Assembly: GCA_000146465.1 (NCBI GenBank)
Contig: CP001947.1
Length of the DNA: 64,000 nt
Strand: one strand, 5' to 3'
Shown here: positions 2,491-63,759 of the stretch, piece after piece
Layout: every line of letters begins with the position of its first letter
Position numbering within the stretch: the first letter of the stretch is position 1
Position numbers and translations under genes: made by a program
Notes under the pieces: model-generated
What the model saw: the letters and a program-made list of their open reading frames with translations, nothing else
Told to the model about the DNA's origin: nothing
Database searches by the model: none

Positions 2491-2964
2491 ATGGAAAGCA
2501 AAAGAAAAAACACCACGAAGGAGCTTCTTAGAAAAATAGAATCACAGATAGACAAAGTGGCCTTTCTTCATTCTAATCCTACTCAAGCCAGAGAAATCGG
2601 AAAGGCTCTCCCCCCTCTACACCATCCCCAGGAAATTCTTGGAAGGTGTATTGCGAGGATGGACCGGCTGAACTCAATGATGAATCCAATGAAGTGCTTC
2701 ACAACATCTATTCCTTCAATAGAGAAACAGGTGGAGTACTTGTACCAAAGAAAAAAAGAATTTGACGAGGACAAGTGTTATTCTCTTCTTACAAAAAATA
2801 GAGTCGATGGAATCCTTTCCAACAGAAAAGCAACAATCAGGACAAAAGGAAGAACTCTAAGCTACGAGTTTAAGGAAAAGCTCACAGGATTCTTGTCAAA
2901 GAGAGGTAATGCTTCATGGAGCAATGAGAAAATAGATGACTTCATTAACTCGATGATGAAGTAA
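2491..2964 (+). CDS. hypothetical protein (157 aa)
   Basis: ATG at 2491 (MESKRKNTTKELL...). Sits in the otherwise gap-free gene array. No recognisable domain. Confidence 0.45.
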   Translation: MESKRKNTTKELLRKIESQIDKVAFLHSNPTQAREIGKALPPLHHPQEILGRCIARMDRLNSMMNPMKCFTTSIPSIEKQVEYLYQRKKEFDEDKCYSLLTKNRVDGILSNRKATIRTKGRTLSYEFKEKLTGFLSKRGNASWSNEKIDDFINSMMK

Positions 2965-2989
2965 CTCATATAAACCATCCTAAGCCTGT

Positions 2990-3766
2990 TTATTTATCTT
3001 TTCTGGACTTTGTTCTACCAATGTACTTGGTTCTACACTGGATGGGGTTTCGAGTCATTACATGTGTGCTCACGTTTCGCCAATCTCCCTCTCCATATAT
3101 GTTCACACCTTCCATTAGTCTTTCATTTTCATCCTCTGTCCATTTGCCTTTGCGAAAATTTTTGTTGAGGAAATAAAATCTCATGGCACATTCCTTCCCA
3201 GTCTTTGTCTTAACTATCTTCGATACATATCTCCATTTCGAAAGCCCGTACTTCTCCACTCCCTGCTCCAAAAGCTTGTCTTCCTCCACACTCCACATCT
3301 TCGGTACAGATATGGTATTTGACCGAAGATGCTCTGTAAACACTTTAAAGGGTCTACATCCAACTTCCTTGGATATTTCAATCCAGTCTCTGCCCTCCTC
3401 GCTCATTTCCTTGACTCTGGCCATGTCGCTCTTACTCAGTTTCTTGTCGAGGCTCTCCTCCTTGTTGATCCATTTGTTAAAGCATTCATTTCTTGAAATG
3501 CTGAACTTTTCAGACATCTCCTTCCAGAAAGAGTCCTTGAGATCAAATCTCATGCAGTTCTTTGTTTTCTTGTGGAACTCCTTGTCCCGTTGAATGTCCG
3601 CTTCAACAGATATGGATACTTTTCCCTTCGGCTTAAGCCTGGCTATTGTGTTATTATAAGAGCATTGTCTTTTTATGTCTCGAAGCCTCTTCAAAATTTT
3701 CTCTATCTCTATGTAATCCATGTAAAGTCTCTCCAACCTTTTGTTCAGAGACCCCTTCTCTACCAT
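2990..3766 (-). CDS. Myb/SANT-domain DNA-binding protein
   Basis: Two Myb-like repeats in the C-terminal half (WSVEEDKLLEQGVEKYGLSKWRYV..., WTEDENERLMEGVNIYGEGDWRNV...QCRTKY). The track M is TTG. First in-frame ATG is at 3766. Confidence 0.6.
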   Translation of the reverse strand: MVEKGSLNKRLERLYMDYIEIEKILKRLRDIKRQCSYNNTIARLKPKGKVSISVEADIQRDKEFHKKTKNCMRFDLKDSFWKEMSEKFSISRNECFNKWINKEESLDKKLSKSDMARVKEMSEEGRDWIEISKEVGCRPFKVFTEHLRSNTISVPKMWSVEEDKLLEQGVEKYGLSKWRYVSKIVKTKTGKECAMRFYFLNKNFRKGKWTEDENERLMEGVNIYGEGDWRNVSTHVMTRNPIQCRTKYIGRTKSRKDK

Positions 3767-6356: not shown

Positions 6357-7385
6357 TCAATCAAATTCGTCAGACAACGGGGCTTCTCTGGGAGGCTTTG
6401 TCCACCATCCATAAAAAGATTTCGAGGCTTTGGAAAGACTCCCAAGTGCTTGAGGAACATACTCTTGAACCTTATTCTTAATGGTACTTCCAAGTTCTTG
6501 AGGAACATACTCTTGGATCTTTTCCCTAACGATGTTTTTAAAATTGGGAATATACTCCTGCAATATCTTCTTTACAATAGATGGAATTATCTTCTTTGCA
6601 TATTCTAGAACAAGGATCTTGGCCTCTTCCTCCGATAGGGAGGAGCCCTTCTTTTTTGAGCTGTGCTCCTCATTTTCGATTGCAATGATCCATTCAAAAA
6701 AGAGAACAATGCATCTCTTTGCTATTGGATATAAAAAGGGAAAAGATACCACGATCAAAAACAAAAAAGTTATTGGTAGTGAAAACTTTTCAAATCTAAA
6801 CGGAACTCTCTCCATTCTCTCTTCAACCTTTCTCTTGATAGTCGACTCCATTGCCATCAGAACAACACCCACCAGATAGGAAATCTCTGAGGGAATTCCT
6901 TCTCTTCCGTGATTCAGAAAATCAACTGCCAGTGCTGTTCCAATGATCAGAATAGTCAAAGATGAAAATATAGTCTTACTGGCAGAATAAGGAGTAGTGG
7001 AATTCAATGTCTCACAAGCATTTGGCAGTAGATATCCCATCGACACAAAAATGGCACACTTGTGGATTCCAGCCTTTCCAGTTTTGAATGCAACAATTGC
7101 CCTGAGAAAGTATATTGTTAGAACAGCTATGCAGAATAGCTTCATCATAGTTTTGATATTTATATCATTCAAAGCAGACTTCCCGTCGCTTCTGTTGATG
7201 GAAATCAATCGCAATAAGAGTCTTACTTGGTAAAGGAAATTCACAAGCATAAGAATCCTAATTATCCAGCTAGCCAACACCCAGTTTACATTTGCGTATT
7301 GTATTCCAACTATAAAGTACAAGGTAAATAGTGTCAAAACCTCACTGCTAAACGGTTTTATGTTTATGGAAGCGATCTTCTCCAT
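6357..7385 (-). CDS. hypothetical multi-pass membrane protein with C-terminal 18-aa tandem repeats
   Basis: 342 aa with several hydrophobic helices. The C-terminus carries three repeats of a K(I/V)QEY(I/V)PQ unit, encoded by a 54-nt tandem DNA repeat. Confidence 0.55.
   Translation of the reverse strand: MEKIASINIKPFSSEVLTLFTLYFIVGIQYANVNWVLASWIIRILMLVNFLYQVRLLLRLISINRSDGKSALNDINIKTMMKLFCIAVLTIYFLRAIVAFKTGKAGIHKCAIFVSMGYLLPNACETLNSTTPYSASKTIFSSLTILIIGTALAVDFLNHGREGIPSEISYLVGVVLMAMESTIKRKVEERMERVPFRFEKFSLPITFLFLIVVSFPFLYPIAKRCIVLFFEWIIAIENEEHSSKKKGSSLSEEEAKILVLEYAKKIIPSIVKKILQEYIPNFKNIVREKIQEYVPQELGSTIKNKVQEYVPQALGSLSKASKSFYGWWTKPPREAPLSDEFD
6420..6625. repeat. 54-nt direct tandem repeat (about 3 units) inside the CDS 6357..7385
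   Basis: The 19-mer cttgaggaacatactcttg recurs 54 nt apart. It encodes ILQEYIPNF / IQEYVPQEL / VQEYVPQAL. Confidence 0.6.
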
Positions 7386-7523
7386 TCCCTACTTCTGAGA
7401 GAAAACCAAGATAAATTAATTACAACTGTGAACCAATAAAAACACTCTTTCTCTCCTTATTAATCAAATTCAAAAAGAAAATCCATGTTATTCAGGATCG
7501 CAGGGCTAAGTAAAGATGTTTAT

Positions 7524-8068
7524 TCAAGACGAGACTGCTCTGTTCGACAAGTTAAGTGCCTCTGCCTGCTCGGCAAGCTCTCGGGCTCTTTGCTCATCGG
7601 CCTTTCTCTTGATTATGCTATCTTTCATGTGGAATCTGTGCTTGAAAAGATGGCCCTTTGCCTGCTTGTAAAACACTCGGAAGTCTTCCTTGGTGATCTC
7701 TCCATTGGCCCTCATCTCCTTCAGCATCTTCCTCATTGCACGAATCTTCTTCATCCATAGCTCCTTCCTTGGCATTCTTGCATTGGCCGTACCAAAGCGC
7801 TTTCCAGGCCCCATGTGCCTCCCCTTCTTCTTGGCTGCCAGGCGCTTTCGGAGTCGTCCTCTGCTGGTGTGCTTGTCCTGCTTCATAATAATCACATTGT
7901 CTTGTATCAGCTGCCTAATCTGATCCCGAGTGGTTGCTCCGTTGAGCCTCTCAATTTCGTTGTTATCCAACCAAAGCTTCTTCTTCCCACATCCTAGGAT
8001 GTCTGCTGCCAAACGCCTGACTCTCTCCTCGTTCGACCTTCAAATTAGAAATGATCCATCACTTACAT
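7524..8068 (-). CDS. RPL19: 60S ribosomal protein L19e, interrupted by a 29-nt intron that splits the start codon (AT|G)
   Basis: Body matches L19e (GCGKKKLWLD...GRHMGPGKRFGTANARMP). There is no in-frame ATG for the conserved N-terminus. Upstream the minus strand reads AT-GTAAGTGATGGATCATTTCTAATTTGAAG-GTCGAACGAG... Splicing gives MSNEERVRRLAADILGCGKKK, which matches the canonical ...QKRLAASVL N-terminus. Exon 1 is about 8067-8068, the intron about 8038-8066. Confidence 0.8.
8038..8066 (-). other. spliceosomal intron (29 nt) of RPL19
   Basis: 5' GTAAGT, branch-like CTAAT, 3' AG. Removal restores the conserved L19 N-terminus in frame. Confidence 0.7.
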
Positions 8069-8152
8069 TTTTAGGGTGCAAATTTTTCCGGGCTTTTGCC
8101 TAAAGGCCTGATCAAACAACTCTCCAAAAACAAGATTTATTCGTCCGAGTCT

Positions 8153-9801: not shown

Positions 9802-10263
9802 TTATTTCTTTCTTGAAACACCCATGGACTTCCCACGTCTTCCATTTGACTTGGTCCTTTGTCCACGGACCTTGAGGCCAACATCGAGTCTGCATGCTCT
9901 GATGCGCTTGTTCTTCTTTCCTCTTTCAATCATCATTCTTAGATCTGCATCGAGTTTTGTACCTATGAGATGGGATGTTGTCCCGTCAACAGGATCCTTC
10001 TGATGGTTTAGATAAGATTCCGGAATTCCTAGGCTTGCAGGGTCGAGAATTGCATCTGAAATCCTCTTCATCTCCTCCTCAGACATTTCTCCGGCACGCC
10101 TCTTCAAATCAATCCCAAGGCGCTTGCATATGGCTGTCGAGATTCTTATTCCCACACCTCTGATCTTTGTAAGAGCAAAAGCAATTCTCTTTGTCCCGTC
10201 AATGTTGGTGTTGTGGATACGAACGATGTACTGGACGTCAGCCGGGTCGTAGACATAGTTCAT
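9802..10263 (-). CDS. RPS18: 40S ribosomal protein S18 (uS13)
   Basis: IVRIHNTNIDGTKRIAFALTKIRGVG...RGQRTKSNGRRGK matches the S18/uS13 family. Full length, ATG. Confidence 0.9.
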   Translation of the reverse strand: MNYVYDPADVQYIVRIHNTNIDGTKRIAFALTKIRGVGIRISTAICKRLGIDLKRRAGEMSEEEMKRISDAILDPASLGIPESYLNHQKDPVDGTTSHLIGTKLDADLRMMIERGKKNKRIRACRLDVGLKVRGQRTKSNGRRGKSMGVSRKK

Positions 10264-10358
10264 TTAAGGGATTAAATTTTTCACGGTTCAAAATGAAGGC
10301 AGACTTTCAAGATGGAAAGACAACAGGACGTAGTAACAGATAAAACCAAAAGTATACT

Positions 10359-10643
10359 TTATTCCTCCAGAAGCATCTTTGTCAACTTCTTCATCCTCTT
10401 TCCTGCACGCTTGTGAGACCCCAATCTCTTTCGGAGAATCCTCTGTGCCTTGCTATTGTTCTTTGCCTCAATAAGCGAAATAACTTTCTTCTCAAGTGGA
10501 GAATAACCGCATAACTCCTCTGCAACTGAGGCTGCAAACATGCGTATCTTTCCAGACTCCTCGCTGGGCTTCTTGGCTTCTCTCTTCACATCGGGCCTCT
10601 TTACTGGATAACGTACTCGAACTTTCTTGAGAGCGTTCTTCAT
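10359..10643 (-). CDS. RPL36: 60S ribosomal protein L36e
   Basis: The C-terminal 94 aa of the track ORF (AEELCGYSPLEKKVISLIEAKNNSKAQRILRKRLGSHKRAGKRMKK) match L36e. The upstream part of the track ORF is run-through. ATG at 10643. Confidence 0.8.
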   Translation of the reverse strand: MKNALKKVRVRYPVKRPDVKREAKKPSEESGKIRMFAASVAEELCGYSPLEKKVISLIEAKNNSKAQRILRKRLGSHKRAGKRMKKLTKMLLEE

Positions 10644-10695
10644 TGCAGGGCCGAGAAAAATTTTAATTCTACAAGGATGCAGTCCTTGCAAACCA

Positions 10696-20663: not shown

Positions 20664-21014
20664 TCATGCCAGTCCCTTTTCCTTTAGGAGCTCGTCCTCA
20701 ACTCTTTTCCTCAGCTTCATCTGGAATCTCTCGAAATCATTGGTTGTATCCTCCTCACTAATGCTTTCTGGAATGAGCTTTCCTATCTCTTCTGGACTAA
20801 GATCCTTAATGTCAAACGACTCATCCTCAAGGTGGAGATTAGATATAGAGCACATTTCCCTCTCTCCATCCTTCCTCTGGAGAAGTACAAAGGTTGCATC
20901 GATGATGCCAACAATTATGCCATATGTTTTTCTTTTTTCTTTGAGTGCAGGTGTCACAATCCTTCCCAGCCTTACTGTCTTCTAAAGTTAGCCAAAAAGA
21001 AGCTCACTTACCAT
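20664..21014 (-). CDS. RPL14: 60S ribosomal protein L14e with a 30-nt intron directly after the ATG
   Basis: The spliced product MKTVRLGRIVTPALKEKRKTYGIIVGIIDATFVLL...NDFERFQMKLRKR matches L14e (KOW-like N-terminus; TDFDRFKVMKAKK-type tail). ATG at 21012-21014, intron 20982-21011, exon 2 from 20981. Confidence 0.8.
20982..21011 (-). other. spliceosomal intron (30 nt) of RPL14
   Basis: ATG|GTAAGTGAGCTTCTTTTTGGCTAACTTTAG|AAGACAGTAAGG. Canonical 5' splice site, GCTAAC branch-like box, 3' AG. Restores the L14e N-terminus. Confidence 0.75.
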
Positions 21015-21061
21015 TTTTAGGGCAAATTTTTGTGTAGATTTAACCGTAGGAAAGTACACTG

Positions 21062-46304: not shown

Positions 46305-46362
46305 CAGGGCTTGGAGCTCCAAAAATTTGTTGCCCAATAAATGGACTTGAAATTGGTCCCTG

Positions 46363-47637
46363 ATGGATTTGGAGAAAGTACGTATTTCTCAAAAGAAGGT
46401 TATCAACATTGTATTTGTCGGCCATGTTGATGCAGGAAAGTCAACGATATGCGGGCAGATCCTTGTTCAAATGGGATTGGTAGATCCAAGGACATTGGAG
46501 AAGTATAAGGAGATGTCTCGAGAACAGAATAGAGAAAGTTGGTATTTGAGCTGGTGTCTGGACATCAATCCTGAAGAAAGAGAGAGGGGAAAGACTACAG
46601 AAGTAGGAACGGCATCGTTTGAGCTTCCTCACAGAAGAATAAATATACTAGACGCACCGGGGCATAACCAGTTTGTATTTGAGATGATAAATGGGGCCAA
46701 CCGAGCGGATGTGGGGATACTGGTTATATCTGCAAGGATAAACGAGTTTGAGGCGGGGTTTGAAAAGGGAGGTCAGACTAGAGAACACATCTTTTTGTTA
46801 AAGGCCGGAAGTGTCCAAAGGTTGATTGTACTAGTTAATAAGATGGATGATCCAAGTGTGGGATGGAACAAGAGTAGGTTCGATGAGATCAAGGACAAAG
46901 TCTCGGCATTTGTTAGAAGGATGTTTCCTGTCCCTGTATTTATTCCTGTTAGTGGATTTACTGGAGAATACATCAAGGACAAAGGATCATGCCCATGGTA
47001 CGATGGGGAATCTTTTCTTTCGGAGCTCGACAAGATAACAATCCCAAGAAGATCGGATGTGCCTTTGGCAATTACTGTTACAGAAAAGGTAAAGCTAATG
47101 GGAATGACGATTTTGTACGGGAAGGTTGAATGCGGAAAGGTAACTCCCGGGATGCCAATAAAAATCCTGCCACACAATACAAAGAACTTCATTTCGTCTA
47201 TAATGGATGATGAAGATGTTGAAATTGAGGAAGGGAATCCAGGAGATGTTGTGAAACTGAAGCTAAAGGAGGATCCAGATGATGTATCAGTTGGAACTAA
47301 AATACTAGATCTCAACAACATGGATTACAGATCTACACAGGAATTTACATGTGGATTAAACATACTCGACGTCGATACAATAATAAGCTCTGGGTATACA
47401 TGTATTCTTCATGTAGGAATTGCTACCGTTCAGTGCAAAATAAAAGAAATAAGGGACATCAATAACAAGAAGATCAGATTCTGCCGCCATGGAAGTAAGG
47501 TTCTTGCAAAGATAGTGGTTTCATCTCCTATCTGCGTTTTTCATGGTAACAAGGATGAAGAAGAAAGACAGAGATTTGCACTGAGGCTCGAGAGTAAAAC
47601 CATTGCTGTAGGTGTAATAAGAACCGTAAAAGAATAA
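46363..47637 (+). CDS. EF1-alpha-like translational GTPase of the eRF3/HBS1 subfamily
   Basis: GHVDAGKST, DAPGH, NKMD. GFEKGGQTREH is the eRF3/HBS1 signature. Beta-barrel domains II/III. 424 aa with no N-terminal extension. Confidence 0.8.
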   Translation: MDLEKVRISQKKVINIVFVGHVDAGKSTICGQILVQMGLVDPRTLEKYKEMSREQNRESWYLSWCLDINPEERERGKTTEVGTASFELPHRRINILDAPGHNQFVFEMINGANRADVGILVISARINEFEAGFEKGGQTREHIFLLKAGSVQRLIVLVNKMDDPSVGWNKSRFDEIKDKVSAFVRRMFPVPVFIPVSGFTGEYIKDKGSCPWYDGESFLSELDKITIPRRSDVPLAITVTEKVKLMGMTILYGKVECGKVTPGMPIKILPHNTKNFISSIMDDEDVEIEEGNPGDVVKLKLKEDPDDVSVGTKILDLNNMDYRSTQEFTCGLNILDVDTIISSGYTCILHVGIATVQCKIKEIRDINNKKIRFCRHGSKVLAKIVVSSPICVFHGNKDEEERQRFALRLESKTIAVGVIRTVKE

Positions 47638-47698: not shown

Positions 47699-48055
47699 TT
47701 AATTATGAGAGCTTACCCTGTTCGGATTGAATCCATATCTGATCTTTCTTCCTTGAGAAGAGCGGACTCTAACTATCTTGGCGTGGCACGCACAAGACAC
47801 GCAGAACTGTGACTTATAGCCCATCCTTGGAACTTCAAACACTTCGTAGATGGTTTTCTCTTTCAGATCATCAAATGAGGCCTGTTCAATGAGAGACTGA
47901 ATCCTAAATCTTTTGATTGCCTTATCCTTAGGTGTTACACTGCCGCACTTATCGCACTGGATGGGCTTCACACTTCCTCTGTTCTTCTTTGATCTCCCGT
48001 GGTTTCTTCTTTTAACTGTCTATAAAATTAGAATGCTTCGCCTATCACTTACCAT
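47699..48055 (-). CDS. RPS26: 40S ribosomal protein S26e with a 33-nt intron directly after the ATG
   Basis: ATG(48053-55)|GTAAGTGATAGGCGAAGCATTCTAATTTTATAG|ACAGTTAAAAGAAGAAACCACGGG... The spliced product [28 protein letters not shown]... matches S26e ([26 protein letters not shown]). The track ORF lacks this N-terminus and starts at an internal GTG. Confidence 0.85.
48020..48052 (-). other. spliceosomal intron (33 nt) of RPS26
   Basis: 5' GTAAGT, CTAAT branch-like box, 3' TAG. In-frame restoration of the universally conserved S26 N-terminus. Confidence 0.8.
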
Positions 48056-48242
48056 TCTTAAGGGCAAAAATTTTCGAGTCAATGAACTTTGCCATTCGCA
48101 GGTTTGATCAAGTGCAGAATTCTGTTCCACCAGCCATTCCATTCTTAAAGACGGAAGAGAAATGATCCAATTCTATTTTAGTTCTTTAACTTTTAAATAA
48201 GGTACGTACTTACCCCAAACAATAACAGAACCTTGCATTTGG

Positions 48243-62996: not shown

Positions 62997-63042
62997 TCCT
63001 GGGGATAACCATTAGACAAGGATATATGTAAGTACTTGAGGA

Positions 63043-63759
63043 TTATAATTCTCCTTTAATATTCGACGAGGGAAGCCTTTCGGATATTCCAGACTTCCTG
63101 AAAACATGTTTGTAATATACTGCAAAGAAGTCCATATAAAGTAGGGTCTGAACAATCCCACATGCAATGGGAATATTTCCTGTGTTCCTTATATTATAGA
63201 ATCTTTTGACGATGAAGTATACTGTGTACGAAGCCCTGTAAAGGCCCAGCAGAAGAATGTATTTAGAAGTCATTGTCTCTGATTCACCGGCTTCTTGGAG
63301 CTGAACAAGTTGTGGAAGAATAGAAACGCTTTCAAGGAACAAAGATGATATGTACAGGACTTTGGGGACATATTTGGAGAAACTTCCTGAATCCCTGGCA
63401 AAGTACAACGAAAGCACAAAGCACGGGATTATCAGAACTAAGATATTAAACTTGTCCCACTTCTTGTCGTAGGTGGAAAAGTACTTGAATCTCATCAAGA
63501 AAAGAATGAGGACTTGGAACCCGATAAATAAGATCTTCATTATGAAGTTGTAAACTTCAAGAGGGCTTTCGACGTGGAGATCAAGGAGATCGATATATCT
63601 AAATACAAATACCATGGCATACAGGAATTGAGTCTTGAGTGACAGCCCACTACAGGACCTTGTTTTTGTTATCTTTGTTATTAACACAATTTTTGAGGCC
63701 ACGTGAAGGAAGTCCCCACAAAATCTGAATGCATCTGCTATTATATATGGAAGAAACAT
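63043..63759 (-). CDS. ERD2: ER lumen protein-retaining receptor (KDEL receptor)
   Basis: MFLPYIIADAFRFCGDFLHVASKIVLITKITKTRSCSGLSLKTQFLYAMVFVFRYIDL matches the ERD2 N-terminus. 7 TMs. Confidence 0.85.
   Translation of the reverse strand: MFLPYIIADAFRFCGDFLHVASKIVLITKITKTRSCSGLSLKTQFLYAMVFVFRYIDLLDLHVESPLEVYNFIMKILFIGFQVLILFLMRFKYFSTYDKKWDKFNILVLIIPCFVLSLYFARDSGSFSKYVPKVLYISSLFLESVSILPQLVQLQEAGESETMTSKYILLLGLYRASYTVYFIVKRFYNIRNTGNIPIACGIVQTLLYMDFFAVYYKHVFRKSGISERLPSSNIKGEL

Follow-up and report, generated by a model that had tools for sequence, protein, structure and literature searches.

The start codon of the Encephalitozoon intestinalis RPL19 gene is very probably split by a 29-nt spliceosomal intron

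The gene for ribosomal protein eL19 (RPL19) on chromosome VI of Encephalitozoon intestinalis almost certainly carries a 29-nt U2-type GT-AG intron within its start codon, and splicing recreates an in-frame AUG. The gene is on the minus strand of the window, the 64,000-nucleotide stretch of DNA that was analysed, which has a G + C content of 40.6%; that reported for the E. intestinalis genome is 41.4% (PMC4313915). A preliminary description had assigned the locus to RPL19 and proposed a 29-nt intron dividing the start codon as AT/G (the stroke marks the intron), with a one-nucleotide doubt about the boundaries. Scripted splicing settled this doubt in its favour, and the extent it proposed for the gene, 7524-8068, is exact.

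Direct reading of the minus strand from 8400 to 7300 gives ...GGAAAAATTTGCACCCTAAAA-AT-GTAAGTGATGGATCATTTCTAATTTGAAG-GTCGAACGAGGAGAGAGTCAGGCGTTTGGCAGCAGAC..., and with scripted splicing the gene start resolves into CCCTAAAA-AT, the intron GTAAGTGATGGATCATTTCTAATTTGAAG, and GTCGAACGAG. The coding part of exon 1 is confined to the AT of the start codon (8067-8068, minus strand), as found by direct reading, by the splicing script and in the orthologue alignment. The GT-AG intron GTAAGTGATGGATCATTTCTAATTTGAAG occupies 8038-8066 (minus strand); it runs for 29 nt from 8066 to 8038, starts with GT, ends with AG and is followed by a G at 8037. Its length and the restored frame come from the script, and motif statistics and a seven-lineage comparison bear on it as well. 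Exon 2 (7524-8037, minus strand) contributes this first G, which completes the ATG, and then eL19 codons 2-171 and a TGA stop codon (7526-7524), as shown by translation, Pfam and identity to a deposited protein. Re-checking the frame, as the preliminary description had advised, showed that removal of 8066-8038 restores it: the coding sequence is 516 nt, divisible by 3, has no internal stop and encodes 171 amino acids. The junction of the spliced model reads ...CCCTAAAAAT joined to GTCGAACGAGG, which can equally be written ...CACCCTAAAAAT joined to GTCGAACGAGGAG. Translation begins MSNEERVRRLAAD... (also MSNEERVRRLAADILGCGKKKLWLDNNEIERLNG...), and the predicted N-terminus, MSNEERVRRLAADILGCGKKK, proved correct.

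The intron opens with the 5′ splice site GTAAGT (8066-8061) and closes with the 3′ AG (8039-8038). Between them, TTCTAAT (8050-8044) resembles a branch-point sequence; its putative branch A is at 8045, and the 3′ AG comes 7 nt later. Judged by its sequence, the intron appears to be a short U2-type GT-AG intron of the kind found in the Encephalitozoon clade, which it resembles in boundaries, motifs, length, frame restoration and orthologous position. At the other end of the gene, an AATAAA hexamer resembling a polyadenylation signal (7519-7524, minus strand, by direct reading) begins on the final base of the stop codon (TGAATAAA). AAUAAA-like signals of E. cuniculi can start within coding sequences (PMC2803860), and the hexamer may represent the same compact arrangement of stop codon and putative poly(A) signal.

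The identity of the product is clear. Both Ribosomal_L19e domains exceed the gathering score in the spliced 171-amino-acid protein: the N-terminal domain PF01280 (E-value 8.4e-22, 77.3 bits against a cut-off of 25) and the C-terminal domain PF25476 (1.9e-31, 108.5 bits against a cut-off of 25). Residues 5-54 match profile positions 3-52 of 53 in PF01280, and since this match begins at residue 5, the short extension encoded at the start of exon 2 is required to complete the N-terminal domain. By exact-sequence look-up the product is ADM11708.1, 60S ribosomal protein L19 of E. intestinalis ATCC 50506; the deposited gene model would thus appear to use the AT/G intron. Two further spliced products of the window, described below, are likewise identical to E. 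intestinalis proteins, and on these matches the window was assigned to chromosome VI of this species. A protein search returned three orthologues, given here with their N-termini: E. cuniculi (89% identity, 171 amino acids, full coverage, MSNEERVRRLA), E. hellem (87%, 171 amino acids, MSNEKRIRRLA) and Ordospora colligata (74%, 172 amino acids, MTNEQRVKRLA).

Orthologous loci were compared in E. cuniculi (three strains), E. hellem, O. colligata (three strains) and three further relatives represented by Logan assemblies. The gene order L36e-S13-TFIIB-ERV1-L19 is common to all of them, except L008, where no S13 gene is called. The preliminary description had suggested a comparison with RPL19 of Encephalitozoon, and the AT/G intron is indeed present in E. 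cuniculi (31 nt) and E. hellem (31 nt); the NCBI gene span minus the coding sequence is 31 nt in each of these and 26 nt in Ordospora. The intron position is identical at syntenic loci in seven lineages, i.e. the species of the window and six others. The architecture in every lineage consists of the upstream signal AAATTT(T)G(C/T)ACCC(T/C)(G/A)AAA(A), the dinucleotide AT, an intron that begins GTAAGTG and ends TAATTT(G/C/GT)AG, and a second exon that begins G(T/A)C(G/A)AA(C/T)GA. In all seven the 5′ site is GTAAGTG without exception, a TAAT sequence resembling a branch point is present, and G is the base after the 3′ AG. The introns measure 25, 26, 27, 29, 30, 31 and 31 nt, values that are mostly not multiples of 3; they differ in length only in the part that separates the 5′ site from the branch-like motif.

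Beyond the 3′ splice site the pattern of substitution is that of a coding sequence. Over the 20 codons that follow the ATG, the window and E. cuniculi differ at 3, 1 and 11 sites in codon positions one, two and three, respectively, with 2 amino-acid changes; the corresponding numbers for the window and L009 are 2, 0 and 12. As exon-2 differences fall mainly at third codon positions, the proposed 3′ splice site is precisely where coding constraint sets in. Ahead of it lies a segment that, on this comparison, behaves as non-coding DNA with conserved splice signals, as would be expected of a real intron. A Logan contig from the same species (L012, ERR13302946) also contains the intron; it may originate from DNA or RNA and hence is not transcript evidence.

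That the gene is a pseudogene or the product of an assembly error is barely credible. The one observation in favour is the absence of a contiguous open reading frame starting with ATG. Against it, the same structure recurs in independent assemblies of seven lineages, including the three E. cuniculi and three Ordospora strains, and the L19 body has no defect and evolves under purifying selection. Each genome shows a single eL19 gene at the syntenic position, a gene that is presumably essential.

A second alternative is that no splicing takes place and L19 is translated from unspliced RNA, either via a non-AUG codon (TTG at 8012, giving a 162-amino-acid open reading frame) or from the internal Met52. 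The mechanical list of open reading frames holds only the 162-amino-acid, TTG-start frame at this locus (7524-8012), and a Logan gene call gives the same frame, as prokaryote-style callers do. Short introns of microsporidia are, moreover, inefficiently spliced, and 5′ RACE showed that one intron predicted in an E. cuniculi ribosomal protein gene, L7A/L27A, is not spliced (PMC2803860). In the frame of the L19 body, an intronic TGA (8043-8041) lies 10 codons upstream of Leu10 (TTG at 8012), in agreement with the stop noted in the preliminary description. The accompanying statement that the L19e body has no in-frame ATG is true as far as codon 52: in-frame ATGs do occur, the first being codon 52 itself (7886-7884), so there is no usable ATG ahead of the conserved N-terminal domain. 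Initiation at Met52 would remove this domain entirely. Initiation at TTG 8012 conflicts with the nine codons upstream of it (SNEERVRR), which are conserved at the protein level in seven lineages, with changes mainly at third positions, and which are needed for a complete Pfam N-terminal domain. The segment from the ATG to SNEERVRR, in turn, invariably opens with ATG-TAA, and its length changes between lineages by numbers that are not multiples of 3. Finally, an RNA-seq study of E. cuniculi reports splicing of all previously annotated introns (Grisdale et al., 2013; PMC3629993). Translation from unspliced RNA is very improbable on these grounds.

The region upstream of the split codon carries a recognizable start signal. 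Directly upstream of the ATG (8069-8085, minus strand), direct reading gives AAATTTGCACCCTAAAA-ATG, composed of AAATTT (8085-8080), GCA, CCC (8076-8074) and TAAAA. The stretch at 8085-8066, AAATTTGCACCCTAAAAATG, fits the AAATTT-like plus CCC signal close to a start codon, a motif defined by Peyretaillade et al. (2009; PMC2803860); in the supplement to that paper the E. cuniculi L19 entry reads 'AAAAAATTTGCACCCTGAAA (intron)' and the Nosema ceranae L19 is likewise marked "(intron)". The signal is nearly invariant in all L19 orthologues compared, and 8069-8085 probably contains the core promoter and a very short 5′ leader. The pattern AAATTT-N0-8-CCC-N1-8-ATG has 6 matches in the window and 1.23 expected, an excess that makes it a useful marker of start codons in this genome. 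Five belong to ribosomal protein genes, all on the minus strand: L19 (8066-8085), S13 (10261-10279), L36e (10641-10663), Eint_061145 (21012-21029) and S26 (48053-48073). The sixth, AAATTTGTTGCCCAATAAATG (46323-46343, plus strand), is 20 nt upstream of an open reading frame of 424 amino acids resembling translation GTPases (start at 46363). It was considered as another gene with a split start and rejected, being out of frame with the GTPase-like frame and having no adjacent GTAAGT. The ATG at 46363 is itself preceded by GGCCC.

Similar introns occur elsewhere in the window. The pattern GTAAGT-N5-30-YTAAY-N2-10-AG gives 7 matches, which represent 4 distinct sites, compared with 1.32 expected, and none of 100 shuffles reaches 7. 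Three of the four sites coincide with or immediately follow an ATG preceded by AAATTT...CCC, and all three are starts of ribosomal protein genes on the minus strand. In Eint_061145, a 30-nt intron, GTAAGTGAGCTTCTTTTTGGCTAACTTTAG (20982-21011, minus strand), directly follows an intact ATG (21014-21012) preceded by AAATTTGCCCTAAAA. The spliced product of 106 amino acids is exactly Eint_061145 (AHL30120.1), which UniRef names 'Ribosomal protein L14E/L6E/L27E'; Pfam returned nothing for it at E<=0.01. In RPS26, a 33-nt intron, GTAAGTGATAGGCGAAGCATTCTAATTTTATAG (48020-48052, minus strand), directly follows the ATG at 48055-48053; the spliced 107-amino-acid product is exactly ADM11746.1 and matches Pfam S26e at 7.3e-38. 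Deposited S26 proteins are of 105 amino acids in E. cuniculi GB-M1 and 108 in EcunIII-L, gene models thus differing between strains. A plus-strand match, GTAAGTACTTGAGGATTATAATTCTCCTTTAATATTCGACGAG (63028-63070), was rejected as an intron: its spacer is long, its branch motif (TTTAAT) is weak, and neither an ATG nor a ribosomal protein context accompanies it, so that it is probably a chance match of the sort expected from the shuffles.

These two introns bear on a third alternative, in which the L19 boundaries lie one base further on (ATG/TAAGTG...GAAGG/TCG), which would leave the start codon whole in exon 1 and make the intron one of phase 0, bounded by the non-canonical TA-GG. Each junction is followed by a G, so the shift gives an identical mRNA, and also an identical protein, and the claim of a split start codon therefore rests on the GT-AG rule. 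The other two introns of the window directly follow an intact ATG, as the shifted intron would. Their 5′ sites, however, match that of L19 only if the last base of the ATG is assigned to the intron; the GTAAGTG is invariant in the seven orthologues, and TA-GG ends conflict with the GT-AG rule, which is universal in the clade. The shifted boundary is accordingly rated as extremely improbable, and the AT/G placement is retained.

With the intron inside the start codon, expression of RPL19 may be pictured as follows. The transcription start would be a few bases ahead of the ATG and immediately past the AAATTT...CCC signal, as suggested by reports on E. cuniculi, and exon 1 of the mRNA is probably shorter than 10 nt, with only AU coding. 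The 5′ splice site of the pre-mRNA would overlap the start codon (AT/GTAAGT). The spliceosome would recognize this strict 5′ site and UUCUAAU, the putative branch site 7 nt from the 3′ AG, and would join AU to the G of exon 2, forming an AUG that opens the frame of codons 2-171. The L19 intron is one of those in the original E. cuniculi annotation (PMC2784321), and the RNA-seq published for E. cuniculi suggests that the intron is likewise removed from RPL19 transcripts here. Unspliced RPL19 RNA contains ATG-TAA, a one-codon open reading frame, so that full-length L19 would come from spliced mRNA alone. Splicing of short introns in E. cuniculi is inefficient, with 22 of 37 having less than 20% spliced transcripts, and for this reason most L19 transcripts may stay unspliced.

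The unspliced form opens with ATG-TAA in every one of the seven lineages. One might suppose that this AUG-UAA overlap is a conserved fail-safe or regulatory device, whereby abundant unspliced L19 RNA is kept silent and the rate of splicing sets eL19 output, possibly with feedback by eL19. The invariance of the arrangement in seven or more lineages is compatible with such silencing or regulation and does not demonstrate it. The authors of the study of splicing levels in E. cuniculi found little evidence for regulatory splicing of ribosomal protein genes, and a device of this kind is considered rather unlikely.

In Logan and metagenome assemblies the 5′ ends of L19 calls are wrong (L008 at 2990-3020; L009 and L011 near 2900-3000) because the intron was ignored. 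The proteins P0001, P0004, P0006, P0007 and P0009 are truncated or start inside the intron: P0004 begins at an intronic GTG (MVICRTNEK...), and the other miscalls begin at downstream codons. The true N-termini should be MTNEK..., MTNED... and MSNEE....

Just downstream of L19, the window has an open reading frame of 342 amino acids (6357-7385, minus strand), whose orthologues are without a Pfam match. It is present in Encephalitozoon, its counterparts having 339-350 amino acids in E. cuniculi, 318 in E. hellem and 383 in L011. The frame is missing from that position in Ordospora and two relatives (by comparison with L005, L008 and L009), where a gene with a CCCH/RING zinc finger directly follows L19.

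Novelty, as far as the preliminary description implied it, does not hold: the intron is already in the literature (PMC2685015, PMC2784321 and the supplement to PMC2803860). With the E. intestinalis product deposited and the intron described in related species in 2009, the AT/G intron of RPL19 is a correct rediscovery of a known feature that is annotated in this genome. It is one of about 36 tiny introns retained in the smallest eukaryotic genomes and a well-known case of extreme 5′ intron bias, to which no new knowledge is added. Its relevance is mainly to annotation, in that prokaryote-style or naive callers of open reading frames miss the RPL19 start. A coding exon of 2 nt can, as the case shows, be recovered from raw sequence by a careful reader.

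The RPL19 intron of E. cuniculi is the same as that of E. intestinalis in its AT/G position, GTAAGTG 5′ site, 3′ half (TTTCTAATTTGAAG followed by G), upstream AAATTTGCACCCTnAAA signal and gene neighbourhood. It differs in length (31 nt compared with 29 nt), and the differences are found where length is variable, after the 5′ site and before the branch motif. It has reportedly been annotated since the work of Katinka and colleagues in 2001. The intron is also shown in Figure 1 of Cornman et al. (2009). In the more distant genera represented by Nosema ceranae and Octosporea bayeri, RPL19 has introns that are described as interrupting the start codon, or as lying in or near it, and that are reported as homologues of the E. 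cuniculi one (PMC2685015, PMC2784321), a likeness drawn from the descriptions; the homologous intron of O. bayeri was reported by Corradi et al. (2009).

Inside the window, the RPS26 and Eint_061145 introns (30-33 nt) share with that of L19 the GTAAGTGA 5′ site, CTAAT or CTAAC near the AG, and the AAATTT...CCC...ATG signal, but they follow an intact ATG (phase 0), whereas that of L19 starts within the ATG, a base sooner (phase 2). [quoted passage not shown] The length range is given there as 22-76 nt, and Pombert et al. (2015; PMC4313915, Table 1) list 36 spliceosomal introns of 23-76 bp in E. intestinalis; the 29 nt of L19 fall within both. Whelan et al. (2019; PMC6349667) describe a class of about 25 nt with GT-AG ends and an extreme 5′ bias. 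Introns of Saccharomyces cerevisiae ribosomal protein genes and of cryptomonad nucleomorphs have the same extreme 5′ position, on or beside the start codon, in intron-poor genomes and with strict splice motifs (PMC2784321), but those of S. cerevisiae differ from the L19 intron in being 50-1000 nt long and efficiently spliced (∼80%).
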